Positions 12,122 to 27,886 of a stretch of DNA of 40,830 nucleotides are shown piece after piece. Made by a program: the position numbers and the translations under genes. A model generated the notes under the pieces. It searched no databases. It was not told the origin of the DNA and saw only the letters and a list, made by a program, of their open reading frames with translations. Position 1 is the first letter of the stretch. Each line of letters opens with the position of its first letter. Location of the stretch: IMG/VR virus record IMGVR_UViG_3300000062_000468; one strand, 5' to 3'. The stretch comes from a virus.

Positions 12122-15100
12122 TTACATTTTTCGCATTTCACCGATTAATAATCTACCCATTTCGTTCACAAGTTTTGGCATATGTTTTCTAGCCTCTTCC
12201 ATAAATCCAGCGTCAACATTACCATTAACTTCAAGTAGATGGTCAAAGTTGAGATTGATACTCTGAACAGTTTTATGATTATTCACATTGTATAATTTCC
12301 CACCACCTAGTCGAGAAGGGTCACTTACAGGATCGAGTTGCGAGAGTTTCCACAAGTTGTCAGTTTGAGCTTTACTAAAGATGGTATCGCCGTCCATCTG
12401 TTTTAACATACCATGTTTAGTCATTAAAACTTCTGAACCCAAGTCAAGCTTGCCAGATTTAGTATCATCAAATAGAGCCAGCTCTTTCCCAGTTTTTCTA
12501 GTACCAGAAGCATATCCTTTAAGCTGAGATAGTTTTAACCATCCTAAGTCACCACTACCCAACTTATTACCAGTACTAATGTGATAGCCATGAGAACCAG
12601 ACATGATTCTAGTGATATGTACTTGACCACCCATGTTTCTAGCACCACTAGCACCAGTTCCTTGAGGGGTGCTATAGTAACGACCACTTGAGAACGTAAC
12701 AGGGTCGCCAACTCTGGCTACACCGTCACCACCACTATTATTAACTGGTATTGGCGCTGGAGTAGAAGGGGTAGTAGGTGCTGGTGGTGGCGGTACTGGT
12801 TTTGGTGTGACATTAACTCCGATACTAACAGACCGATTACTACCATCTGTAGTAGTTACAATAATTTGAGTATAACCAGGACTAATCGCGCGTATAGTAC
12901 CATTTGAACAAGTAGCGACCGACGGGTTACTAGAAGTCCATCTTACTGTTTTATTGTTTGCATCAGAAGGTCGTATATTTATGCCAACAGATGTACTTTG
13001 TCCCTCTTGTAAACTAACAGATGTCTGAGTAGCAGTGAGTTCAGCGACTAAACGATTTGTCACATTTGGAGATTTAGCAATTTCAGATTCTATTGAAGAT
13101 GTATTAACACCAGCAGTGCTAGTGTTTGAAGTATTAATATTATCAATAACGGAGCCAGAAGTGCTTATGCTATTTTGATTTTGGGTGGCGCTAGATGCAA
13201 TATTAGAAGCACCACTTGGAGTTCCAATATTATTAACGATACTGTTAAAATCTTGAGAACCAACAATACCAGTTGAATTGATAATGTTTTTAATAGTTCC
13301 AAATGCATCAGAATAAGAATTGACCATTTTAGCTAGTTGGTTTTGTACAATCTCATTTTGTTTTTCAAGAGAGTGTTGCACATCAAAAGTCAAGTCTTCG
13401 ACAAATCTATTAGCATTGTCCTTCATCTTATCATAACCAGTTTGTTGTGTATCATAAGCATTGTCAGACTTTATTTTATTAAGGTCTTTTTGCGCTTGAT
13501 CTCTCTCAGCAATTAAACGCTTAAGCTCAGCCCTTGATGAATCATTATTTACCCCTTGGAGTGCGTTAATTCTTGCAGAAAGAGAGTTTACATCACGAGA
13601 TTTAGCGTGTACTTTATCAGCAAAATCTTGATACTTTTTCAATTGGGTAAGAGCTTCTTTACGCAAATCAATCGACTTGATTAATGCCTTGTTTTCCAAT
13701 TCAATTTGCTTTAAATACATATCGACTAATTCTTTTTTATAATCGTTCACAGCCAAGGAACTATCTTGAATACCCTTTAGAAATTCACGTTGGCGCTCTG
13801 TGTATTCTGTGGTAGAAATTAGACCTGACTTCAACATAGCATCTAACTTTTTAATACCGGTTGTATAGTCTGCGATTTTTTGCTTTTCGGTAGACATTGC
13901 CTGTCCAATAAGCGCAATATTTGCAAGAGCATCTGAACTCATCTCACCAGACTTGCCAAAGAAACCTTCAACATTAAGAAGTTTTCTGAATGTATCTAAC
14001 TCATCATTGAAGAATGATAAATCATCCATTCTATCATCAAGACCTTTAAATTCAGTTTCAAATACCTTATCTCTTAAAGTTTCAATCTCAATAAACGAAT
14101 CATAAATTTGACTGTCTATATCGGCAATTTCTTTTGCGAGTTGTTGATATCTTTCAGAACTAATAGCATAGATATTCTGTTCGGCTATTTTGTTATTTCG
14201 TAGATTATAATTGGCGCTAATGTTTTTGCTACGCTCATCAATCTGGAGTTGATAATCCTCACGAGTAACATGCTGATTGCGAGCTTCTTTGAGAGAAGTT
14301 CCATTAGATAATCTTTCAATGGCACGACCAAAAGAATCAATACTTTGTTGAATTCTGGTATAGTCAACTTTGCGCAGTTTATCTTGAAATTCAATTAAGG
14401 TAGTATTAACTTCTAGTAATTCTGCTTCGAATTTTCTAACAGTTTCCAAACCTTCAAAGTAGTCAATTTCACCTTGCTTTGTCAAATGTCTATTATCAAT
14501 TAAAGACTGAAATTCTTTTTGATAAGCTGCTAGTTTTTGAACTACCTCTTTCTGGATAGCCAGTTGTTGGTCAACATTGTTTTGTAGAATACTTTTAACA
14601 GTATTAGAAACTGCAGATTCGCCGAGAGCTTCAGATAGTCCAAGTTGTGCATCATTATAATCAACTAGTGCACCTATCGCATTTTGAACTGACTGGTAAA
14701 ATTCATCTACATTTTTCAATCTAGAGACAGCCAGTGACTTTTCTTTGTCTGCAAGTTCGGATACTAAATCTAAAGCTTTTAAGAAATCACTATAATATTT
14801 ATCATAGTGAGAAACTTTAGTTTTTGTGTCTTCATCTAGTTGAGATATATCTAAACTTCCATTTTGTATCTTAGCTTGTAAGTCTGTGCTTAGTCCACTT
14901 TGGTTTGCAAATTCATCAAGATAACTACGATATTGAGATGCCGACCTATTGGCGTTCGCTAACTCTTCTTGTATTTTGGCAATTGCAGTAGAGTTAGCAC
15001 TTTGGATTCCTGCGATTCCAACAGCGCGACTAATTGCATCTTCGGCATGTTTGCTCTCACGAGAATACCTATCCATTTGTATAGATATAAAATCAAAGAC

Positions 15101-18100
15101 ATCTGTTAGTTTTTTTAAGGCATCATCGCTAGCTTTAGCAGCATTATCCGCAGCCTTAGATGTGTTATTAGCTGCTTTAGATGTATTATTCGCAGCTTTT
15201 ACAGCTTGGGAAGAAGTGGTTGTAGATTTCTTAGTAGTTGAGGCGGAAGAGCCGTTTCCTGACAGACCTAGACCGCCAACACCAGTAGAATAATCAGAAC
15301 CTTTAACTGTACCTTCAGCAAACGAAGCACCACCGACAGTATGACCACGACCACCACCGGATTTCACCTTACCATATTTCATTAATTCTTCTGATTGTTT
15401 ACCAGAAAATATAATATCATTTTTTTTCAAGGCAAACATTTCAGCGCCTTGGTCACCCACAGTGAAGAAGCGACCATTTCTCACCACGATTTCAGGCGAC
15501 TGTTCACCTAATAAAGCGGTTTCATTTCTTGAAATACCCCATTGTCCTCCAGCGTAAGCATTTCCGAAACTCGCCCCCATTGCGAACGCCGAACCTTTGA
15601 AACTTGGCACTGTCCCTTGAGCATGAGCTGTTCCATTGGCATGACTACTACCACCTGGGATAGAGCCATTGACTTTCACAGTGTAAGTTACGGTTCTACT
15701 TTCATTTTTGAGAGGATTTACAATATGAGCAGTGTATTGAACATCATATTTCTCGTCTTTAGGTACATTGCCAACTATACTTGCATTATATATGAGCGAC
15801 TTTTCTTCATCTGCGGGAATATCTCCGGCTTTACTAATAACCGCTTCAACGTTTATAGAATTTATTCCAGATAAAACCGCATCTAACTGAGTTCTATCTA
15901 AATTAACACCAGCTTCAACATTTACCTCTGTACCTTGAATCCCAGCAATAGCGGAGTCAAATTCCCCACTGTCTAAACCAAGAGTGCTCATGATGTTTTT
16001 ATCAATATTTGCCATATCCCCGGCTAATGCTTGGACTTTAGATTGGGCTTCAGAGGTATCCACATCGAAACCTGCCGCCTTTTTGCCTTCTAATATATTG
16101 AGAGAAGAGAGAGAGTTTTGAAACTCCATAACTTTAGCTACAGCATTTCCTAATTCGGCATCGATTTCTACAAGTGCACCAACATCTATACTCATTATTG
16201 CAGGGCTAGACATTTTTTCTTTTTGCAGTTGTAGATGTTCGAAAATATTAGTTGCCTCAGTAGCGCCTTCAATCGATAAGTTAACAATACCATCTGAATT
16301 TTTAAAATGTTCTAGTGTATTTGTAGCAGTTTGAATTTCAGCGTCAATTTCATCTACATTGGCTTCGAAATTAATCTCAATAGGTTCTTCGCCAATGTTA
16401 CTGAGTATTTCATTAACTTTGCTTATATACGATTCTAAATCATCAGCAGTAATATTGAATTTCAATTCGCCAGATTCTAAGAAGTCTGCTTGTTGCGCTA
16501 ACAGAAACTCCATAATTTGACTCATAGATTCAAGTCTTTCAGCTTTTACTTCTGGGTCTAGGGTGCTATTATTAACAATATCCATTCCCTGTTGAAGTTT
16601 TTCTAGTTGCTCAGTAGTTTCGATAAAACTAGAATTATTTAATTCAACTGAACCACTTGTGCTAAAATTGGCATTGTTAAGTGCTTCTTTAGCAGCAATA
16701 GCGTTATTTTTTAACTCTTCAAGAGACTGTTTGGGTTGGTCAATATCTATGGATAAACCATAGTCCTTAGTGTTTCTTAAAATAGCTTGGTAAGCTTCAA
16801 CGTCTATCTTTAAGGCATCTGCAATTTCTTTATCACTATATTTACTATCCTTATTAATTTCCCAAGTTCCGTCGCTATTTTGTTTTGCAAACTCTTCATT
16901 GAGTTTTTGCATGTCTTTCAGTGCGGCAGCTGTTCCTTCTATACTATCAGTGAAGTATCGCTTCATCTTAGGGTGAGCTTCTTCGTATGCTTTAACTATT
17001 TCAGGTACAGTGGCATTGCTTAAGTCTTTATGCGACATAAGGTCAACCATAGCCTTGAACTCATTAGTTCCAACTTTTTCTGCCTTATATAATTCTTCAG
17101 CTCGATTCATTCCGCCACGAATAGAGTCATACATATCGCCAGATTCACCACCAGAGGAAGCATTTTGCCATTTATTAAATGCAGAATTTGAAGCTTCGTA
17201 CTGATACTGTAATTCTTTAAGTTGTTCAATTTGAGATTGAATCACACTAACATTATTTAAAGCCGCAGAATCATCTTGTCCGAGATGTCTAGCTTTGGCT
17301 ACATCAGCCATGGCAAGTCCTAATGCTTTTTGTTGGTCTGCCATTTGAGAGAGATAGTCGCTCTTGGTATTAGCATTTTGTTGTCTCTGTAATTCTTGCA
17401 GAGCCTTTTCATTAATACGATAACCATTGGCGGTTTTTTCTAGTGCAGATTGCGCATTGTCTCCGTATAATTCTTTGAAATTCGCAACCGACTCTTGTGA
17501 CATACCCTTTCCAGAATAAGATTCACTCATAAGGGATTGTAATTTCCCAGTATCGTCAATAGCCTTTTGGAGAGAAGAGGTAGTAGCTTCAAACGATTCT
17601 TTTGCTTGTGCTTCAAGAATAGTCATAGCGTCAGCACCACCATCAGCTAATGATTGAAGTTCAATTAATAATTGGTCAGCCTCTATACCAGCTTCTTTAC
17701 ATGCTGCCGTAAAATCAGAGAAGTCGGCTTCTAAGTTTATATCTTCATTGTTACGAAGCTTGTCTACAGCTTTCTGTTGGTCTTCAGCCCATGTGTCATC
17801 TTTGAATATATCGGTGAGAGCTTTACGCTGTTTTTCAAGGTCGGTTATGCCCAAAGCTTTATCAAGCTCAGGAAGTACAATGTCATTAAGCCTCAATGAT
17901 AAATTCTCGTCAATGTCATCATAATCTAATTCAGCCAGTTCAGCTCGTTGCTCGTTGACAAATTTTAACTGTTTAGCTAATTCTTGCTCTTTTTTAATAA
18001 CATCAGCACTATTGCCAGTATGCCTTAAATCTTGTAATTCTTCTTCTAATTTATAAAGTTGTTGAGCAGATATTAATGCTTTTTCCATTGGATCAACCAT

Positions 18101-18820
18101 CATTGCGTCACGCAAATTGTTTTGGAAAAAGCTACTTCCACCAATATTTGCAGACAAGTTGGATAAATTATCATACCAATCAGAAGATATAATGTTTTCT
18201 AAAAAGCCGGATTTTCCAGTGGTAAATCCCTTTGTAGTTAATGCAGCCTCAGCATCGATTTTCGCTGTATTTGCGTCTATTGTGGCTTGTCTTTCTTTTA
18301 GCTGTAGTATACTTTCAAGTTCAGAACGCTGATTTTGAAGTGTTTCAAGTTCTGCTTGGTTAGCAATAGTCATAGGGTTGGCACTGATTTCGCTAATCTT
18401 CTGGTCAATGGTATCTAGTTCAGCTTCTATAGATGCAACTTCGGTTTTACTATCAGCGGCAGTAGCGATACTATTTTTTGCTTTACTCATAGCTTCGGCT
18501 TGGGAAGTATTAAAGTGGTCAACTGCTGCATAAGCTGCACCCACGGCTGCAAGAGTAATGGTGGCAGGGTTAATAAAACTTTTTAGTGTAGCACCTAAAC
18601 CTTTAAATGCCATAGCGTAACCAGTACCAGATTTTTTAACAGCCCCCATGGCATCAATAGCTTCATCTATGTTACCTGTAAAATTACTTATTTCAAAACC
18701 TGCTTTAGCAGCATCTTTTCCGATACCAGCAAATTTTAAATCGTCAGCAATAGCACCGATGCTAAGTCCGTCACTCAATCCTTTATTAATTAAATCAACT
18801 ACTCCAGTTTTTCTTAGTGA
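12122..18820 (-). CDS. Tape measure protein, exon 2 (2232 codons), including an Ig-like (Big_2) and an SH3-like domain
   Basis: Long helical/coiled-coil ORF before Dit with GE..PE and YASGT-type TMP motifs. No Shine-Dalgarno before the ATG at 18823, whose G is the predicted omega-G. The first exon nucleotides UCACUAAGA pair with the intron IGS. Confidence 0.85.
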   Translation of the reverse strand, partial: SLRKTGVVDLINKGLSDGLSIGAIADDLKFAGIGKDAAKAGFEISNFTGNIDEAIDAMGAVKKSGTGYAMAFKGLGATLKSFINPATITLAAVGAAYAAVDHFNTSQAEAMSKAKNSIATAADSKTEVASIEAELDTIDQKISEISANPMTIANQAELETLQNQRSELESILQLKERQATIDANTAKIDAEAALTTKGFTTGKSGFLENIISSDWYDNLSNLSANIGGSSFFQNNLRDAMMVDPMEKALISAQQLYKLEEELQDLRHTGNSADVIKKEQELAKQLKFVNEQRAELAELDYDDIDENLSLRLNDIVLPELDKALGITDLEKQRKALTDIFKDDTWAEDQQKAVDKLRNNEDINLEADFSDFTAACKEAGIEADQLLIELQSLADGGADAMTILEAQAKESFEATTSSLQKAIDDTGKLQSLMSESYSGKGMSQESVANFKELYGDNAQSALEKTANGYRINEKALQELQRQQNANTKSDYLSQMADQQKALGLAMADVAKARHLGQDDSAALNNVSVIQSQIEQLKELQYQYEASNSAFNKWQNASSGGESGDMYDSIRGGMNRAEELYKAEKVGTNEFKAMVDLMSHKDLSNATVPEIVKAYEEAHPKMKRYFTDSIEGTAAALKDMQKLNEEFAKQNSDGTWEINKDSKYSDKEIADALKIDVEAYQAILRNTKDYGLSIDIDQPKQSLEELKNNAIAAKEALNNANFSTSGSVELNNSSFIETTEQLEKLQQGMDIVNNSTLDPEVKAERLESMSQIMEFLLAQQADFLESGELKFNITADDLESYISKVNEILSNIGEEPIEINFEANVDEIDAEIQTATNTLEHFKNSDGIVNLSIEGATEATNIFEHLQLQKEKMSSPAIMSIDVGALVEIDAELGNAVAKVMEFQNSLSSLNILEGKKAAGFDVDTSEAQSKVQALAGDMANIDKNIMSTLGLDSGEFDSAIAGIQGTEVNVEAGVNLDRTQLDAVLSGINSINVEAVISKAGDIPADEEKSLIYNASIVGNVPKDEKYDVQYTAHIVNPLKNESRTVTYTVKVNGSIPGGSSHANGTAHAQGTVPSFKGSAFAMGASFGNAYAGGQWGISRNETALLGEQSPEIVVRNGRFFTVGDQGAEMFALKKNDIIFSGKQSEELMKYGKVKSGGGRGHTVGGASFAEGTVKGSDYSTGVGGLGLSGNGSSASTTKKSTTTSSQAVKAANNTSKAANNTSKAADNAAKASDDALKKLTDVFDFISIQMDRYSRESKHAEDAISRAVGIAGIQSANSTAIAKIQEELANANRSASQYRSYLDEFANQSGLSTDLQAKIQNGSLDISQLDEDTKTKVSHYDKYYSDFLKALDLVSELADKEKSLAVSRLKNVDEFYQSVQNAIGALVDYNDAQLGLSEALGESAVSNTVKSILQNNVDQQLAIQKEVVQKLAAYQKEFQSLIDNRHLTKQGEIDYFEGLETVRKFEAELLEVNTTLIEFQDKLRKVDYTRIQQSIDSFGRAIERLSNGTSLKEARNQHVTREDYQLQIDERSKNISANYNLRNNKIAEQNIYAISSERYQQLAKEIADIDSQIYDSFIEIETLRDKVFETEFKGLDDRMDDLSFFNDELDTFRKLLNVEGFFGKSGEMSSDALANIALIGQAMSTEKQKIADYTTGIKKLDAMLKSGLISTTEYTERQREFLKGIQDSSLAVNDYKKELVDMYLKQIELENKALIKSIDLRKEALTQLKKYQDFADKVHAKSRDVNSLSARINALQGVNNDSSRAELKRLIAERDQAQKDLNKIKSDNAYDTQQTGYDKMKDNANRFVEDLTFDVQHSLEKQNEIVQNQLAKMVNSYSDAFGTIKNIINSTGIVGSQDFNSIVNNIGTPSGASNIASSATQNQNSISTSGSVIDNINTSNTSTAGVNTSSIESEIAKSPNVTNRLVAELTATQTSVSLQEGQSTSVGINIRPSDANNKTVRWTSSNPSVATCSNGTIRAISPGYTQIIVTTTDGSNRSVSIGVNVTPKPVPPPPAPTTPSTPAPIPVNNSGGDGVARVGDPVTFSSGRYYSTPQGTGASGARNMGGQVHITRIMSGSHGYHISTGNKLGSGDLGWLKLSQLKGYASGTRKTGKELALFDDTKSGKLDLGSEVLMTKHGMLKQMDGDTIFSKAQTDNLWKLSQLDPVSDPSRLGGGKLYNVNNHKTVQSINLNFDHLLEVNGNVDAGFMEEARKHMPKLVNEMGRLLIGEMRKM

Positions 18821-18843
18821 CATATGTTATATTCATAAAAATA

Positions 18844-18872
18844 TTGTCGTTTATTTCAATGAATGTTATAAT
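18844..18872 (+). promoter_or_regulatory. sigmaA-type promoter TTGTCG-N17-(TGn)TATAAT
   Basis: 17-nt spacer and extended -10; lies upstream of the 18965 gene. Confidence 0.7.
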
Positions 18873-18964
18873 TAGAGAAAAAATAGAGGGTTGAGCAATG
18901 AAGTTATTAATTATTCATCATAGTGCTGTTACTTATTAAAAAATTTTCGGGAGGGTATAAAATT

Positions 18965-19624
18965 ATGGCTTTAATTAATTGTCCAGAGTGCAACAATCAA
19001 GTTAGCGATACAACGAATAGTTGTATTCATTGTGGTTATTATTTAAGGAGAGGTCAGAAGAAGGAGGAAAAGAACGAACAAAAAATTCATGATAAAAGCA
19101 TAAGAGAATACGACAGTATCACCAAGACTAGTCAATCCAAATTTGATAAGATGTTAAAGGATAACAAAAGAAGTGAGACGTGGAATGTGGTGTGTATTAT
19201 ATCTTGCGTTTTTATGATTATAAGTTTAATTTTACTTGCGATTTATCAAGAAATTGCCAGTTCTTATTATAATAATTACAAACTCACATTAACTATACTT
19301 ATTATTTTAAGTGCAACTTTAACGCTCATGACAATTTTCTCATGGCGGAGTGCTAAAAAAATACGAATAAGAACAGCAGTGAACATAAAAGCACTAAGAG
19401 CCGAACGCATGGCTCAAATATTAAAATTACCACTGACAAAAGATTACATAGAGCAGCTAGAAGAAAAGCGTCAAATGCCGAATTGTCCTAGTTGCGGGGC
19501 ATCTGTAGTTAGTACAGGTCAAAGAGGTTTTTCTGGGGTTGATGGAATGTGGGGTAGTGGTAAAACTACTTGTAGATGCTCAAGATGTGGTTGCAGTTGG
19601 TATCCGATGGATTTAAAAGTGTAA
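18965..19624 (+). CDS. Zinc-ribbon membrane protein (N-terminal CxxC..CxxC, two TM helices, C-terminal zinc ribbon)
   Basis: MALINCPEC...CIHCG, two hydrophobic helices, CPSCG...CSRCGCSW; GGGAGGG RBS before the ATG at 18965. Confidence 0.8.
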   Translation: MALINCPECNNQVSDTTNSCIHCGYYLRRGQKKEEKNEQKIHDKSIREYDSITKTSQSKFDKMLKDNKRSETWNVVCIISCVFMIISLILLAIYQEIASSYYNNYKLTLTILIILSATLTLMTIFSWRSAKKIRIRTAVNIKALRAERMAQILKLPLTKDYIEQLEEKRQMPNCPSCGASVVSTGQRGFSGVDGMWGSGKTTCRCSRCGCSWYPMDLKV

Positions 19625-19684
19625 AAGTTGCGGATATACTTGGTAAAGGATAACTTAGATTTATTACAAGAATAAAGAACTACA

Positions 19685-19722
19685 AACAAAAAGAACATCT
19701 AACTAAAGATGTTCTTTTTGTT
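19685..19722. terminator. Bidirectional intrinsic terminator
   Basis: Perfect 16-bp inverted repeat AACAAAAAGAACATCT/AGATGTTCTTTTTGTT. Confidence 0.8.
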
Positions 19723-19913
19723 AAGATATAAAATACATAAGGCGGGGATATGCTTCCTAATTCAAAATATACATGAACCCACAAGCAATAATTGTTGCAC
19801 AAACCAATTAAAGGTGGGGAAAATATGTAGAAAGGTAAAGAGAGCTTATTCTAAGCTCTCTACATTTGTGAACTATATAGTGTTGTCAGCATTCGACCAA
19901 CAACTTTATTTGT
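19690..19913 (-). ncRNA. Putative structured small RNA (about 220 nt)
   Basis: Bounded by TTGACT-N17-TATAAT (19948-19920) and the 19685-19722 terminator; hairpins such as AGAGAGCUUA/UAAGCUCUCU; no credible ORF. Confidence 0.55.
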
Positions 19914-19919
19914 GAGTTA

Positions 19920-19948
19920 ATTATAACTCACGTATATCTAACAGTCAA
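19920..19948 (-). promoter_or_regulatory. sigmaA-type promoter TTGACT-N17-TATAAT
   Basis: Near-consensus hexamers with a 17-nt spacer. Confidence 0.75.
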
Positions 19949-20095
19949 TACTTTCTTGAGATTTTCTTGCTTTTTCAAGTTCTATTTCTAGTTCTTTAAC
20001 TTTGTCTTGTGCTATATTTCTATCGTTCTTTACACTATTACAATAATCATTTTAATGTTATAATCAGTTTGGATTCTATAGAAGGATGGTGAACT

Positions 20096-20638
20096 ATGAA
20101 AAAGATAACCATGGTAATAATGGTAGCATGCATATTTTTAAGTGGATGCGGTAAGAATTATAAAAACTCAGATGAATATATTCAATATTTAGGAAAAGCT
20201 TATTTAGATGTACCTACAGAATTTGCAGAAAGTCCAGATACTTTATCTGACGAAAGTGGTATAATAGATTTATCGTCTGACGAAGTTGTAAACTTTGAAG
20301 GGTTAAATGGCACTGTAGATTTAAGATATTATAGAGGGGAAGATTTTGCGAATTTTTTAGGTAAAAGACCAAATATTATAACAAATATTGTATGGACTCC
20401 AGATGAAATATCTGTTAAAACATTGGAATATCTAAAGTCGAAATTAGAAAAAACACATGGTAATTATGATGAGTTTCTGGAATATCTAAAAAGAGACAAT
20501 GACAATCAAACAGGGGATCGTTATTATTTTTCATGGTACGATACTGGTAAAGAAGGGATGAATATAGAAATGGCGTATACAGTTAATCCAAACGACACTT
20601 CGGACATTCATGGCATCATAGTGTTTCTTTCAAATTAA
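20096..20638 (+). CDS. Lipoprotein of unknown function
   Basis: MKK plus hydrophobic stretch plus LSGC lipobox. Confidence 0.8.
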   Translation: MKKITMVIMVACIFLSGCGKNYKNSDEYIQYLGKAYLDVPTEFAESPDTLSDESGIIDLSSDEVVNFEGLNGTVDLRYYRGEDFANFLGKRPNIITNIVWTPDEISVKTLEYLKSKLEKTHGNYDEFLEYLKRDNDNQTGDRYYFSWYDTGKEGMNIEMAYTVNPNDTSDIHGIIVFLSN

Positions 20639-20722
20639 GTGTATCAATAACCCTGTCGTTTATTTTGATAAATGTTATAATCAACTGGTATTTTAATATA
20701 TAAGTATGAGAGGGGTAAACAA

Positions 20723-20965
20723 ATGAATAATTCAGTAAAAGAAGAAAAATCAATGATGATTAAGCCATTAACAGTGCTAGGTTTTTTAATTATTGTGTTG
20801 GGTATTATAGGTAGTCTTGGCTTGGGAGATATTATATTAACTATAGCTGGTATAATCAGCTCTGTGGTGTTTGGAATATTAATATTAGGTTTTGCAGAAT
20901 TAATAGAACTCAATTTCAGACAGTGCAAATTGCTAGAAGAGTTGCGTGATAAGAAAACAGAATAA
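20723..20965 (+). CDS. Small two-TM membrane protein
   Basis: Two hydrophobic helices and a charged tail; GAGAGGGG RBS; promoter at 20653-20681. Confidence 0.75.
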   Translation: MNNSVKEEKSMMIKPLTVLGFLIIVLGIIGSLGLGDIILTIAGIISSVVFGILILGFAELIELNFRQCKLLEELRDKKTE

Positions 20966-20978
20966 GAAAGATGCACTG

Positions 20979-21005
20979 AAAAAGACACCCGATAAAGGTG
21001 TCTTT
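20979..21005. terminator. Intrinsic terminator (probably bidirectional)
   Basis: AAAGACACC/GGTGTCTTT stem. Confidence 0.75.
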
Positions 21006-21155
21006 CCCATAATATGATTCGATACTTCACTTCTCGAATACTTCAAGTTCATAAGAACTCACGCTTTAGACCGCTAAATCCTCCACTCAGCATTCGAACG
21101 TCCTCGCAGCGGCGAGCAACGCTGATTTCTCAGTTGATCGTCAAAACCATAGCAC
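20980..21155 (-). ncRNA. Putative structured ncRNA downstream of the DUF3800 gene
   Basis: TTGACA-N17-TATTAT promoter (21189-21161); at least five hairpins including CUGA-GAAA-UCAG and CUCGC/GCGAG; ends at the 20979-21005 terminator. Confidence 0.65.
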
Positions 21156-21214
21156 CCATTATAATACATAAAAAAAATGTTCATGTCAATAGTATGTCCG
21201 GATTTTTATGTATT

Positions 21215-22006
21215 TTAATTAGACATTCTTGGTATAACCTTAATACCATATCTAAAACTACAATCTTCAGTTGTATTACCAGAATAAGCAACTCTTTTTA
21301 TTTCCCTAAGAAATCTATCTTGTCCTGAAAGCAGTTTTAAATTTAAACAATCACGAGCTATAACGGATGGAATAAAATCAGCAAGTTGCAAACAAGAGTT
21401 ATTCTTTTGCTTCGAAATAAAGCGTATAGGCTCTATGAGTCGCTGCACCGCTTCGGCTTTGGTATAGATTGTGCCAATACTCGCTATTTGATAATGTCTC
21501 ATCAACATATGCTTATCCATCGCATCTCTAGACTCATATATAATTTTTCCTTTTGCGTTTTTGGAGTGCAAAAAGTGCGTGAAATTCTCTATTATTATCT
21601 GCATTGATACCAATGATATTTCGTTATGTATATCTTCTGGAAAATGCTCATCAAAAACATCCTTGTTGACAACACAAGCCAGTACATGAATATCATTCTT
21701 CCTAACAACAGTAGCAAGTGAACTATATAATCTTCGCATCACGTTCTTATTATGATAAAAACCTTGATATATTGGGGTGCTCGCCCCTATTCGTTGTTGA
21801 TGATATGCCTATTTTATGTCTTTTTCATGCAATATTATTGATTTTGGGTCTGCGTGAACGCTAGCCCACAAGTTATCTTTTATTTGTTCAATATCCGCCT
21901 TGAGTACAGTTGTCTGTGAATCTTCAATAATAAATCCAGCGATTGCAAAAGTATTTGAGCAGCCATTATCATGAGTCATACTTTCGTCCAAGTATAATGT
22001 GTACAT
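21215..22006 (-). pseudogene. DUF3800 (RNase H-like) protein gene with one in-frame TAG at 21809-21811
   Basis: N-terminal LYLDES and C-terminal LQLADF motifs; ORFs 22006-21809 and 21742-21215 share a frame and the 22 codons between them are open. Confidence 0.8.
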
Positions 22007-22082
22007 ATAATAATACTCCTTAAGTTGATAATATTATTGTACACCATATGAATAAAATCTACAATCGCAATAGTCAATATGA

Positions 22083-22379
22083 TATAATAACACAACAGCC
22101 TATCACGGAATAATCAGTGGAGACTCTGTAATAGGCACAGGCTTCTTGAGTGAATTTAAAGGTGCTTTTAGCGATCTGTTTGGGACAGAATCTAAAGCAT
22201 TTGCGGATAAAATGATTGAAGCTAAGAATGCAGCAAAGCGAAGACTCGTAGAGCAATCTGTATTAGCTGGTGGTAATGCTATTATTGGTGTTGATTTTGA
22301 CTATATTACATTTGCTGGAAATATGTTAGGTGTTAGTGCTAATGGAACTAGTGTGACAATTGAGAAAATGGAAGAGTAG
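22083..22379 (+). pseudogene. YbjQ/UPF0145-family gene, apparently lacking its N-terminus
   Basis: YHGIISGDSVIGTGFLSEF...GGNAIIGVDFDY...VSANGT; similarity runs upstream of the TTG to a TGA with no proper start or RBS. Confidence 0.65.
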
Positions 22380-22387
22380 TATTTAAT

Positions 22388-22687
22388 CTAACGATAGGCG
22401 TAATGTCCTACAATATAATGATGTCCACCAGTTTTCTTAATGAACTTGTAGAATTTAATAGGGTGTAATATATCACGCATGAATCTTTTGTGGTCATATT
22501 TAAAAGATAGTTTGTATTGACGTATATAAGTTTTTATTATCTTCAATGTATATTCAGTCCAAGGAATAGTTCTGAATGAACCAAACTCTTCGGATGTGGT
22601 TATATCTGAATATTTTATACTATTAGGGTTACCAACACCACATGTTTTATCACCTATATAAGCAACAGGTTTATTATTGTTTGACAT
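22388..22687 (-). CDS. Hypothetical protein (99 aa)
   Basis: Strong GGAGGTGA RBS. Confidence 0.6.
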   Translation of the reverse strand: MSNNNKPVAYIGDKTCGVGNPNSIKYSDITTSEEFGSFRTIPWTEYTLKIIKTYIRQYKLSFKYDHKRFMRDILHPIKFYKFIKKTGGHHYIVGHYAYR

Positions 22688-22713
22688 TAAATCACCTCCG
22701 GAGGAATATTATT

Positions 22714-23415
22714 ATGAATAATAATATTGATTTTATTAAAGAAACAACTAGCAATTATGAGCTAGAATATGGTGTAAAAATACCGCCAATAGATATTACA
22801 CCAGAAGATATTGTAAATAACGATGTGGCATATTTTGAGGGTAGAGAATTATACAATGGGATATACAATCTACACGTAGATATATCTAAATTGATGAAAA
22901 GTAGGGATCATGGAGAAGTTATAATATATCACGAACTTACCCATTTGCTAGACTCTCAAAAACTTGTGGATGTGTCAAACTCGTATGAGGATTTTAGAAA
23001 CAAAATTCTTTCTTATTCTGAGTTCCATGCATCAGAGATTGAAATGGCTAAACGCCTTGAAGAAATAAAAGAGTCAGTAAATCGCTACAGCCGCATTCAA
23101 TATGATGGTAGGAAAATTTCAATTGATGATTTTATGAGCAAAACCACAAAGTTTGTTGCTGAAGCTTTCGACAACTTAAATTTTAATAGTGGTTTTGGTT
23201 CACAAATAGTAAGACTGTTTTATCTGTTAGGGTATACGTCGGCGTTAAAGAAGGTGAACTTTCAATACAATCCAGATTTTAGAAAAATAAACCCACTTTA
23301 TCGTCAACATTGTAAAAATCTAAAACAGTTATTACTAACCGATGATGCTTGTGATGTTGATGTTATTGCGTCTGAATTTATGGATATGTTTAACATATTC
23401 GTAACTACGAAATAG
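22714..23415 (+). CDS. Zincin-like metallopeptidase-motif protein (HExxH)
   Basis: YHELTH motif plus downstream SEFHA glutamate; GGAGG RBS before the ATG at 22714. Confidence 0.7.
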   Translation: MNNNIDFIKETTSNYELEYGVKIPPIDITPEDIVNNDVAYFEGRELYNGIYNLHVDISKLMKSRDHGEVIIYHELTHLLDSQKLVDVSNSYEDFRNKILSYSEFHASEIEMAKRLEEIKESVNRYSRIQYDGRKISIDDFMSKTTKFVAEAFDNLNFNSGFGSQIVRLFYLLGYTSALKKVNFQYNPDFRKINPLYRQHCKNLKQLLLTDDACDVDVIASEFMDMFNIFVTTK

Positions 23416-23475
23416 CAGTAGATATGTTAACCATTGTCCGAAGTGTGGTAGGAAGTGGAAGGTTAAGTAATTAAA

Positions 23476-23697
23476 TCAACCTTCTTTATAATCAGGGTCT
23501 AAATATTTTAGTTCGTCGGGAGTAGACATTATGTTTTCCAAGGTATAAGTTGGATATCCGTCACTTATAGAACGGTGCATATTTATTTTAAAAGAATTCC
23601 AATCTTCTTGTAGTTTACCGTCAATGTATATCGAAAACACTTCGCCAGATTCTTTATATTCTTTTGCGGTATTATGTTTAATTAATATTTCTTTCAA
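23476..23697 (-). CDS. Hypothetical protein (73 aa)
   Basis: AAAGGAG RBS with TTG start. Confidence 0.6.
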   Translation of the reverse strand: MKEILIKHNTAKEYKESGEVFSIYIDGKLQEDWNSFKINMHRSISDGYPTYTLENIMSTPDELKYLDPDYKEG

Positions 23698-23733
23698 CTA
23701 AATCAACTCCTTTCAAGAGAGGTAAATAAAATC

Positions 23734-24174
23734 ATGGAAATTAATAACGATTGCATTAGAGATGTTTTAGCACACCTTGTCAATATTCTATATTTAGAAG
23801 TTTGTAGTGATGGTATGCATGGAGAAAATACAAAAACAAATTTATACGAAGTTATCAATCAATTCAAAGGAAAACATGATGAATCGGACGTGTGGTACTC
23901 TGTCGAGATATTAAATGAGATTGGTTACATTCGCATGAAAAACAATAGACCAAAATCCAGAATTATATTAAACCAACAAGAAATCCACCATGTAACCTAC
24001 GCTGGACAACAATTCTATGAACTAACAAAACCAGAAACAATTTGGAAACAAACCAAGGGTGTTCTTACAACAGTTGGTGTTCATACTTTAGAGTTTGTAG
24101 AAAAGATAGCTCATGATATGGCTGTTAAATCTGCCGAGGTTGCGACCAAGATAGCTTTGACAGGACAGGCATAG
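23734..24174 (+). CDS. DUF2513-like winged-helix protein
   Basis: M...DCIRDVL N-terminus and TY.GQQFYE...TIWKQTK motif. Confidence 0.7.
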   Translation: MEINNDCIRDVLAHLVNILYLEVCSDGMHGENTKTNLYEVINQFKGKHDESDVWYSVEILNEIGYIRMKNNRPKSRIILNQQEIHHVTYAGQQFYELTKPETIWKQTKGVLTTVGVHTLEFVEKIAHDMAVKSAEVATKIALTGQA

Positions 24175-24243
24175 TGGTGCTAAATGGAAGCCCGGAAGTA
24201 AAAGGTTGATATGATGAAAGACTTAAGTTGAGAAGATAGGAGA

Positions 24244-24717
24244 GTGGGCAGCATGAACAGTTTAGATATCAGCGATGGTGAAGTTTTACATACTAAGCAT
24301 GGTAAGTTAAAACAAATGAGCGAACCGCTATCACAAATCAAAATAGACCCCATAATTTCACGAGATTATATAAAAGATAATCACGAAAGACAGGGCTTGT
24401 TCGATGTACCCGATTTATCTAGCATTAAGCCTAAGTTGGATGATGAGATATTAGAAGAAACTAAGAAAAACAGGTACGAAAACACTAAAACAAACGCACA
24501 ACTTCAAGTCACCAATCAAATGTTTGACGAATTAAGCCGGACAGTCAAAGAACAATCTGATGAAATATCTCAAATCAAAAAGAAATACAAGAATGAGATT
24601 AAGAGACTCAAAGAAGATGCTAGGTTTGCACAAACTAAAAATTTCATCTCAAATTTGGTTAGCGGTGCAATTGGTGGTATCATTGTATTGGTAATTACTA
24701 AGGTATTAGGTTGGTAA
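24244..24717 (+). CDS. C-terminally membrane-anchored coiled-coil protein with a tape-measure-like N-terminal motif
   Basis: EVLHTKHGKLKQM matches TMP EVLMTKHGMLKQM; C-terminal TM segment LVSGAIGGIIVLVITKVL. Confidence 0.7.
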   Translation: MGSMNSLDISDGEVLHTKHGKLKQMSEPLSQIKIDPIISRDYIKDNHERQGLFDVPDLSSIKPKLDDEILEETKKNRYENTKTNAQLQVTNQMFDELSRTVKEQSDEISQIKKKYKNEIKRLKEDARFAQTKNFISNLVSGAIGGIIVLVITKVLGW

Positions 24718-24799
24718 GAACCCACATTCCTCCACAATAACCAATAACGAAACCGATAACCTGAGCAACAATTTGGTGTATGTCAATATATTTCTTCAT
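24698..24799 (-). CDS. Small hydrophobic peptide (33 aa; MKKYIDIHQIVAQVIGFVIGYCGGMWVLTNLIP)
   Basis: GGAGG RBS, single TM helix; below the ORF-track cutoff. Confidence 0.55.
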   Translation of the reverse strand: MKKYIDIHQIVAQVIGFVIGYCGGMWVLTNLIP

Positions 24800-24840
24800 G
24801 TGTTTCCTCCATTTATTCGTTGTTAATTTGATATATTTGT

Positions 24841-25394
24841 TTATTTTCTCTCTATCGACAAACGCAAGCAACAGTGAGAGAGTAGCACTGTAACTAGCGA
24901 TAAAATTTAAACTACTTAATTAAATAAGTAGACACTTGGACTATACTTTAACAGTCAATAAAATAAGGTTTTTACTGGCTGTGAGGATGGGTAGTCTCTG
25001 AATTTCCATTCTATAAAGTATCCTTATACTATTTTATTAGTTTATGCGATACAACCAGTTTGTCACAAAAGTGGTTTGCTTTTGGGACGAAAAGGGTCGT
25101 CTTAGACTCACTTTGGTTAGAATGTGAACTGCTGATTAAGGCATATTACATATTCGCAATCTATATTTTCAAACCATTGCCGTTTACTGTTGCCAGTTCC
25201 GTTTTGGTTATAGATAACTTCCTATTCCAGCAAAGCAAGATTTTACAACTTGCCAATACTCCTCCGGGTATATTTATAGAACCCCCGTTAATGCAACTTG
25301 TAGACAACACCATATTGTTGTTTCCTTGTTACAAAGTGGACTCACTAAAATCAGATTATATCTGAAAAGTGTAACTCCGTGATTTACTGAGTTA
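24841..25394 (-). ncRNA. Group I ribozyme core (P1-P9)
   Basis: UGCUGG/UCAGCA (P4), CAUUCUA/UAGAAUG (P6a), CAGAGACUA and AAGUAUAGUCC (P7), ACAG.CAGUAAAA/UUUUAUUG.CUGU (P8), CUACUUA/UAAGUAG (P9), GCAA tetraloops in the P5 extension. Confidence 0.9.
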
Positions 25395-27296
25395 ATCCAT
25401 GTTCTTTAAAAAGCTGCCAGTACCAAATATAGCACCGAGTAAACCAAGGCTTCCCGCACCACCACCAAGACCAGCAATGCTAGTTAAAATTCCCAATAAT
25501 GATGTAGCACCATCTATTAAACCTTTAAACATATCAGTGTTTACAAATGTAGTAGAAAATGCTTGCCATTGTGCCTGTAGAGATGCCAGTTTTGCTTCTA
25601 AACTATTCATCCATGTATCTTGCTCGGCTTGAGCGGAACCATCAGATGTTAGAGCGTCTTGATATATCTTATCTATTTGACCATTTTGAAACGCAGAGAT
25701 TATAGCTGCTGTTTGGTTAGCCCGCATTTTGCCGGATACTAATTCAAGTAGTTCAGCCTGCTCTGTTTCTTTAAGATCGCCATAAACAGCAGAAATGTCT
25801 TGGAGAATATCATACACATCTCTAAATTTATTAGGATCATCTTTATCAAAGATATTTACTTTTCCTTTAGTTAAGTTGAGAATTTGAGTTTGCATCTTGC
25901 TAACAGATTCAATACCCTCAGATTCTTCTCCGAGATCCTGAAGTGCCCCGGTCATGCCCCTTAGCCTAAGCATAACTGTACGAAGTCCTTTTCCCATTTC
26001 CTCAGGTGCTTGGGTTATCTCCGAACCACCTACGAGTAATGCATTTGTTTTTTCCATTGAAGTACCAGCAAGAGCAGCGACAGAAGCTACATCTTTTAGA
26101 CCAGCACCAAGACCGGCGGCTGATACAGCGTATTTGTTACTCAAGTTGTTTAACTGGTCAACGATGCCAATTGAATTATTAGATTCAATATTATAAGCCT
26201 TCATAATAGCTGTTAAATCTTGAACGGCAGTTTTATCATCAACATCGCCAACATTGGCATATATTGTACTTACTCTAGCTAAATCTTGCGATTCATTGAG
26301 AGAAAAACCAGTCTTAGCCCACTCAGCAGATTGTGTTATTAAACCAGAAACAGAACGTCCTAATGAAACAGCGTCCTTCTTTGAATTTTCAAAGAATTTT
26401 CCATATTGGTCTTTTGAAGCATCTGTAACCTTATATAAATCTGTCATAGCCGAGTCAACAGCTAAAACTTCTTTTGCCATGCTCTTAGCCATTCTGATGC
26501 CAGCTTGCAATGTAAGATAAGAAGCGGCTAACTTTCCTATGCCAACTATATTACCCTTAATTGATTTATTAACCTCATCAAACTGTTGACTCATTGTTTT
26601 ACCGCTACCCGTTTCTCCAGCGGCTCTTGCGGCGGATTTAATCTCGTCAGCTCTACTATTTAATACTTTCAAATCAACATCGGAGTTTGACTCTCTTTTC
26701 AAAGCGATTATATCTTTTAACTGAGTTTTATATTCTTCACTCAGTCTGATGTTGTTATTTAAAAACACTTCATCCCTGTTGGCAGAGGTAGAACGCTTGT
26801 TTTCAAAAATCTCTTGTTGTGCTATATCTAAATTTTTATAAGATTTAGTTAGCTTGGTTGCATCTTTATTTAACCCATCAAGCGCCGTAGAAGCACCGTC
26901 AGTTTTCACAGTTAAATTTTCATTTAAAGACGCTTGTACTTTTTTCCAATCAGCATCAAGTTCCTTTAGTTCTGACTGGAGTTTATTAATAGAAGCAGTA
27001 TCAGTTTTTGGAGATGCTTGTAAGGTCGCCAATTGTCCTTGTTTAGCCTGAATTGACGCACTTATCTTTTGAAGATTCACCAAATCCTTTTGAGCTGCTT
27101 TTATATTGCTATTATCAACTACAATTTTAGTTCTTATGTCTTTAGGCTTTAATTTATTAATGGCTTCTACAGCTGCCTTGTCTATGTCAAGATTAATTTT
27201 AATACTTTTATCTTTTATAGACTCTATCGTACTTTTTAGCTTATCTAAGCCCTTCATGTCTACATCGACACTAATTTTGGCTCTAAAATCACCCAT
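25395..27296 (-). CDS. Tape measure protein, exon 1 (634 codons; TP901-type core)
   Basis: VDSAMTDLYKVTD, EWAKTGFS, D.LNNLSNKYA and G.GLRTV.LRLRG motifs of the phage tape-measure core; the apparent TAA lies immediately 3' of the predicted 5' splice site. Confidence 0.88.
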
Positions 27297-27749: not shown

Positions 27750-27886
27750 AATATTTCCTCCGCTTATCCATAAAATTAGTAATTTATTTCTGTTAATAAG
27801 TTTCTATCCGTTCATTCTTTCAACCATTGTCGTTAAATCAATTATCCCTTATAATATGAATATCAAAATATGAAAGGATATTACTT

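Follow-up and report, generated by a model that had tools for sequence, protein, structure and literature searches.

Group I introns are already known in phage tape-measure genes and as carriers of unrelated DNA. As far as the available portion of PMC2504315 goes, TMP-IVS1/2/3 of Bacillus cereus-group prophages lie in frame in the tape-measure gene, begin with a stop codon, fit differing cores to one site, and carry a homing endonuclease or nothing. The IStrons CdISt1 and BcISt1 (about 1.9 kb) are presented in the accessible text of PMC4227781 as a 5' ribozyme core followed, after the P9 subdomains, by extra DNA with IS200/IS605 or IS607 transposase genes and a remote 3' splice site, and splicing of BcISt1 was tested in vivo. 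The giant ND5-717 intron of hexacoral mitochondria, according to the part of PMC6545197 at hand, encloses many genes and poses the question of splicing in cis or in trans; there the insertion lies in P8 and splits the core, and back-splicing proceeds from a permuted precursor. Here we describe the tape-measure gene in the viral record IMGVR_UViG_3300000062_000468 of IMG/VR (40,830 nucleotides (nt), hereafter the window), which by sequence comparison is split by a group I intron carrying about 6 kb of unrelated genes.

The window intron resembles TMP-IVS1/2/3 in its in-frame position in the tape-measure gene and the stop codon at its start, and its family likewise fits differing cores to one site; it differs in its swappable multi-gene cargo on both strands and its distant 3' docking module. 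It shares the IStron layout, but has no recognised transposase, a fixed site in one gene and variable cargo. Unlike in ND5-717, the core is intact through P9.1 and the 3' end alone is displaced. A promoter-overlapping docking hairpin with variable multi-gene cargo after P9.1 appears in none of the available portions of these three papers, and a partial search of the intron literature turned up no account of either the layout or the contact.

The window corresponds to the late-gene region of an SPbeta-like phage; the region is read from the minus strand and includes members of the families YonD, YonB, YomX, YomW, YomV and YomU, in an order like that of the SPbeta late operon (PMC5467207). Named relatives belong for the most part to Lachnospiraceae and other Clostridia; L068 and L071 are prophages of Roseburia sp. 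1XD42-69 and Lacrimispora sp. HJ-01. Among cultured phages only distant relatives were found. The SPbeta gene yomI is annotated as continuous; the tape-measure gene of the window consists of two frames, of 634 amino acids (aa; 27296-25392) and 2,233 aa (18823-12122), with some ten cargo genes between them. Excising 6,574 nt (25394-18821) yields a single stop-free frame of 2,866 aa, and the predicted spliced junction aligns with continuous homologous proteins, in the window as in relatives. The P, Q, R and S elements, the P3-P7 core and the G-binding G-C pair are all located, with a P3 of only five clean pairs and a hairpin inserted before P4. A terminal omega-G, P10, P9.0 and a host frame restored on removal, the features by which group I introns are recognised, are present as well, and guanosine-dependent self-splicing is the predicted activity.

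Loci of related phages were gathered through an alignment query. Of those fetched, 98 are split and 59 continuous at one and the same codon, and the split loci include 71 distinct intron starts or cores; where both intron ends could be assigned (39 loci), the length is 722-8,208 nt (median 3,194). The guide sequence follows the first bases of exon 2, both differing widely among loci, and P10 is kept across 0.7-8.2 kb. When viral contigs were scanned for DNA patterns of the window's core or arm, 0 and 5 matches came back.

An initial annotation had proposed that a long-range helix of 13 plus 6 base pairs (bp) clamps the cargo loop. The sequences that it quoted, and the pairings, are indeed present: 13 bp with one G.U (24854-24842 with 18885-18873), 6 bp (24861-24856 with 18849-18844) and an imperfect P9.0 (24937-24932 with 18827-18822, one A.A mismatch). 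They do not make one continuous helix, since the 6-nt 3' arm lies inside the 8-nt loop of a terminal hairpin and so does not extend the 13-bp helix coaxially; it forms a separate, pseudoknot-type contact between the strand after P9.1 and the hairpin loop just before omega-G.

The loop contact is found again in strongly diverged relatives, in a set of 39 introns of 0.7-8.2 kb. Covariation was assessed by pairing the automatically predicted terminal-hairpin loop of each locus with the 150 nt after P7, permuting partners among 14 core families. Cognate contacts averaged -6.35 kcal/mol versus -3.38 +/- 0.49 kcal/mol for shuffled ones (z -6.1), a value reached in 0 of 20,000 permutations, and cognate beat non-cognate partners in 13 of the 14 families, one of which supplies 17 of the 37 loci with a loop. 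P9.0 gave z -4.5, and control regions in cargo (z +0.3) and exon (z +1.0) were null. The covariation expected by the initial annotation thus appears at the loop contact and P9.0; across families, the region holding the 13-nt arm has no cognate specificity (z +0.8, +0.4). In individual examples, UUG/CAA is invariant and the positions next to it alternate among U-A, G-C, C-G and A-U; this pair table is anchored by hand, with L180 off by three bases, and is illustrative, the family permutation being the non-circular test. The conserved clamp, as these comparisons predict its function, is the 6-bp loop contact and not the 13-bp helix.

Two close relatives offer a natural swap of the 3' module. L001 (99.9% identity) and L002 (99.2%) follow the window sequence almost base for base across exon 1 and the greater part of the cargo. 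The divergence begins at 20047, within a promoter motif, and ends at 17860. They have a different 3' splice site and a different exon-2 start (protein 44% identical), and lack both the two downstream terminators and the 13-nt 3' arm, the best leftover pairing (-5.1 kcal/mol) being equalled by 40% of the cargo background. P10, the P9.0 strand and the loop contact are retained: the loop, UGACAA, pairs with the core strand with a G-C turned into G.U, and the terminal hairpin is stronger, its stem changes compensating. Because the 3' arm is lost while the core stays the same, the 13-bp part is optional; what survives of the proposed clamp is a long-range pairing that bridges the cargo, together with a real P9.0. 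The 13-bp helix may be an inherited accessory, and no compensatory change supports it. The 99.9%-identical pair is a ready-made natural experiment. The first 320 or so codons of exon 2 are swapped along with the last cargo gene (17860-18820 in the window, 17283-18225 in L001). Accessory membrane genes may travel with a matching tape-measure segment, a candidate link to superinfection exclusion.

The terminal hairpin coincides with a feature of the other DNA strand. In 69% of loci a strong antisense promoter marks the end of the intron, compared with 5% of random windows; by automatic call, its -35 box falls inside the predicted loop in 14 of 39 loci, and in others the promoter overlaps the splice junction. 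The invariant CAA of the loop is explained as the complement of TTG in the -35 box. The promoter accounts in this way for the fixed bases of the loop, not for the core strand that tracks the variable ones. The antisense transcript would start near 18879, covering part of the 13-nt arm and sparing the hairpin. Another antisense promoter, TTGTCG-17-TATAAT, lies upstream of the tape-measure gene (27827-27855, plus strand).

We propose that the late-operon precursor would be one RNA that reads through the cargo terminators, its 5' core folding first. At the distant 3' end, a terminal hairpin with a loop of 6-9 nt, followed by P9.0, omega-G and P10, would form a compact module. By docking of the loop on the single strand just after P9.1, this module would bring the 3' splice site to the core at any cargo length, and self-splicing would join the exons into the 2,866-aa frame. 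The opposite DNA strand would serve as the sigmaA promoter of the last cargo gene, expressible in the lysogen, and in the window phage the 13-bp helix could form as an accessory. This gives a concrete, testable account of how a ribozyme may reach across as much as 8 kb to its 3' splice site, and would explain why such tape-measure genes are annotated as two genes. It would also mean that defence-type and membrane cargo has a protected landing site within an essential virion gene, and the docking hairpin might be used in engineering self-splicing or RNA-circularising constructs with large inserts.

Whether the two ends of the intron belong to one transcript turns on the cargo terminators. Both minus-strand hairpins named by the initial annotation fold stably (-18.3 and -19.6 kcal/mol), and a further one stands at 19861-19839. 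On the intron strand, 32 of the 39 cargos contain terminator-like hairpins, and these are far denser in cargo (about 93 per 118 kb) than in exon 2 (24 per 140 kb). Past the last terminator, the 39 loci show no conserved sigmaA promoter on the intron strand, the best matches being mostly mediocre and without fixed place; in the window, the 862 nt after the last terminator lie inside an antisense gene, and the best promoter match there scores 9. The two halves of the window intron are collinear on one strand. Because no conserved promoter would serve a separate 3' half, we favour splicing in cis, from one read-through precursor with its 3' end docked on the core, and consider it probable. Read-through has a precedent in YonO, which transcribes the SPbeta late genes as one operon with little pausing (PMC5467207); this operon crosses antisense genes, and annotated same-strand stem-loops lie within the stretch that YonO transcribes. 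YonO homologues occur in three of eight related records, and by analogy a read-through agent is presumed in the window phage. In L195 and L197 (the record of L031), the gene for a YonO-like polymerase comes in two parts separated by about 1 kb, and an intron may be what divides it.

Several observations weigh against this reading. Splicing and a continuous precursor are predictions from sequence comparison. The Rfam model RF00028 gives no match on the window intron; the Rfam group I model also misses the same-site tape-measure introns of seven relatives, probably because of their large insertions and displaced 3' ends. The 6-bp contact of the window is itself weak (-5.4 kcal/mol, only within the best 29% of non-cognate cores), and in the cognate test the core sequence ahead of S also yields a mild signal (z -2.8). 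Docking is not universal: L019, L021, L071, L113 and L181 have no clear terminal hairpin, and in the first four it is the 3' splice junction that falls within the antisense -35 box. YonO was undetected in three related records that are at least 90% complete, and PMC5467207 left terminators out of its YonO tests.

Among the alternatives, a single precursor might be cut within the cargo loop, for instance by RNase III on antisense duplexes or by cargo RNases, with docking, P9.0 and P10 holding the halves so that splicing takes place between two pieces. Most cargo genes are antisense with promoters of their own, PemK, NYN, ToxN and Abi_2 proteins are found in the cargo of relatives, and the docking contact is conserved, all of which would suit such a nick. 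Yet 6-9 bp plus P9.0 are weak for a two-molecule complex, and the same architecture is found in introns of just 0.7-0.9 kb, so that we regard this as unlikely. True trans-splicing, in which a 5' half ending at a cargo terminator and a 3' half from an internal promoter are joined by the long-range helix, draws on the dense terminators and on the natural trans- and back-splicing group I introns of mitochondria reported in the accessible part of PMC6545197. It is rather more doubtful: no conserved strong promoter lies past the last terminator (a phage-polymerase promoter would escape the scan), both strong minus-strand promoters of the window (21189 and 19948) meet a terminator before the 3' splice site, and the longer 13-bp arm, the best handle for joining in trans, is dispensable.

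That the 13-bp helix is the essential clamp seems very improbable, even though its 5' arm has its only 13/13 partner on the whole minus strand of the 40.8 kb at 18885, collinear with the 6-bp contact, at least 13 contiguous pairs occur in just 0.6% of random 40 x 80-nt window pairs, its -14.0 kcal/mol is ahead of all sampled cargo windows, and both arms recur, though apart (L083 has the 5' one, L169 the 3' one). The duplex energy of the region is unremarkable, being equalled by 21% of random pairs, and the swap in L001 and L002, the missing compensatory and cognate signals and an antisense transcript start that would overlap the helix speak against it. Hardest of all to credit is that no splicing is needed: the gene would yield two separate polypeptides, with an AUG that overlaps omega-G, and what is conserved at the 3' end would reflect an antisense promoter only. 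There is an in-frame ATG at 18823-18821, gene callers make exon 2 a gene of its own, and the -35 box explains the invariant CAA of the loop; but this ATG lacks a ribosome-binding site, many relatives have TCG, ACG, CAG or TAG right before exon 2, and a promoter cannot account for core-side bases and a guide sequence that track the 3' end. A broader proposal goes beyond cis-splicing by read-through: a portable 3' splice module, dual-coded as promoter in the DNA strand and docking hairpin in the RNA, might permit splicing across or between pieces of arbitrary multi-kb cargo even if the precursor is terminated or cut. We put it forward tentatively, thinking it possible rather than probable; if true, it would mean natural split-precursor group I splicing in phage and the swapping of accessory genes with a variable tape-measure segment.

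Table 1. Features of the split tape-measure locus (window coordinates; a point marks features given without a single strand).
Feature	Position	Strand	Basis or remark
Tape-measure exon 1, 634 aa, PhageMin_Tail domain	25395..27296	-	Ends in U at 5' splice site; homologues stop at same codon
Group I intron, 6,574 nt, final base omega-G = 18821	18821..25394	-	Frame restoration and junction alignment
Tape-measure exon 2, 2,232 aa, Big_2 domain	12122..18820	-	First ~320 codons swapped in L001/L002
Internal guide sequence: P1 with 25399-25394 (U.G at splice site), 9-bp P10 with 18820-18812	25337..25350	-	P10 covaries with exon-2 start across relatives
Catalytic core P3-P8	24938..25264	-	Motifs and helices located
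P4	25233-25228/25134-25129	-	
P7 with G-binding G-C pair	24998-24992/24943-24938	-	
P8	24982-24951	-	
P9.0 5' strand, partner 18827-18822	24932..24937	-	One A.A mismatch; cognate test z -4.5
P9 and P9.1 hairpins	24863..24931	-	Folding
Docking strand UUGUCG, core side of long-range contact	24856..24861	-	Cognate test
13-bp helix 5' arm, optional; possible local partner of P9.1 loop	24842..24854	-	Similar arm in L083 without partner
Cargo, ~10 genes, both strands	18886..24841	.	DUF2513, YbjQ fragment, DUF3800 with one in-frame TAG, lipoprotein-like, membrane proteins, zinc-ribbon membrane protein
Terminator-like hairpin, intron strand	20979..21005	-	-18.3 kcal/mol
Third intron-strand terminator, missing from initial annotation	19839..19861	-	Folding
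Bidirectional terminator, closes plus-strand gene 18923-19624	19685..19722	.	-19.6 kcal/mol
Swappable module: zinc-ribbon gene, promoter, 3' splice site, exon-2 start	17860..20047	.	975 other bases in near-identical phages
13-bp helix 3' arm, optional; complements antisense transcript leader	18873..18885	-	Absent in L001/L002
Antisense sigmaA-type promoter, TTGTCG-17-TG-TATAAT; -35 box = docking loop	18844..18872	+	Motif scan
Terminal hairpin, 8-nt loop 18851-18844 with docking partner CGACAA	18830..18865	-	Folding; stem changes compensate in L001

Two other roles for the 13-nt arms were considered and rejected. A DNA-level inverted repeat, such as a transposon end or inversion site, does not fit a 5' arm that belongs to the conserved core (L083), a 3' arm lost in L001 and an unchanged cargo orientation; and the 5' arm as a sense promoter has no correctly spaced -10. 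The P9.1 loop (CUCUC, 24885-24877) could pair with GAGAG of the 13-nt arm (24853-24848), a competing local pseudoknot in the window and L083.

Additional interruptions are seen in the relatives. In L070 (at offsets 1124 and 5383 from the 5' splice site), L020 and L083, two or more long downstream frames show P10-like complementarity; these may represent further introns, alternative 3' splice sites or frameshifts. The exon-1 match of L056, L058, L064-L066, L084, L085 and L139 is broken at about residue 160 or 235 of the aligned region, which suggests further introns upstream in the same gene. L048 has three ordinary group I introns that score with Rfam (16276-19839), in genes downstream of the tape-measure gene.

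The cargo, interpreted as accessory ('moron') genes, occupies the loop after P9.1. Pfam recognised no homing endonuclease among the scanned window cargo proteins or ten first-cargo frames of relatives, and no transposase domain among the former, so that the IS200/IS605 or IS607 genes that mark an IStron after P9.2 were not found there; PADLOC gave no convincing match on the window cargo. The cargo of relatives includes DUF3800, PemK, ToxN, GmrSD, Abi_2, NYN and antirepressor proteins, and in 37 of 39 loci an antisense frame, often for a zinc-ribbon protein, begins within 150 nt of omega-G. The DUF3800 gene of the window (21215-22006, minus strand) is broken by one in-frame TAG (21811-21809), a split that is identical in L001 and L002; intact versions of 242-243 aa occur in L170 and L185. 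A strong promoter (21189) and a terminator bound a candidate non-coding RNA of some 180 nt (about 21155-20979, minus strand) without an Rfam match, and a near-consensus promoter followed by two terminators (19948-19685, minus strand) delimits a candidate small RNA of about 75 or 230 nt that is absent from L001 and L002.

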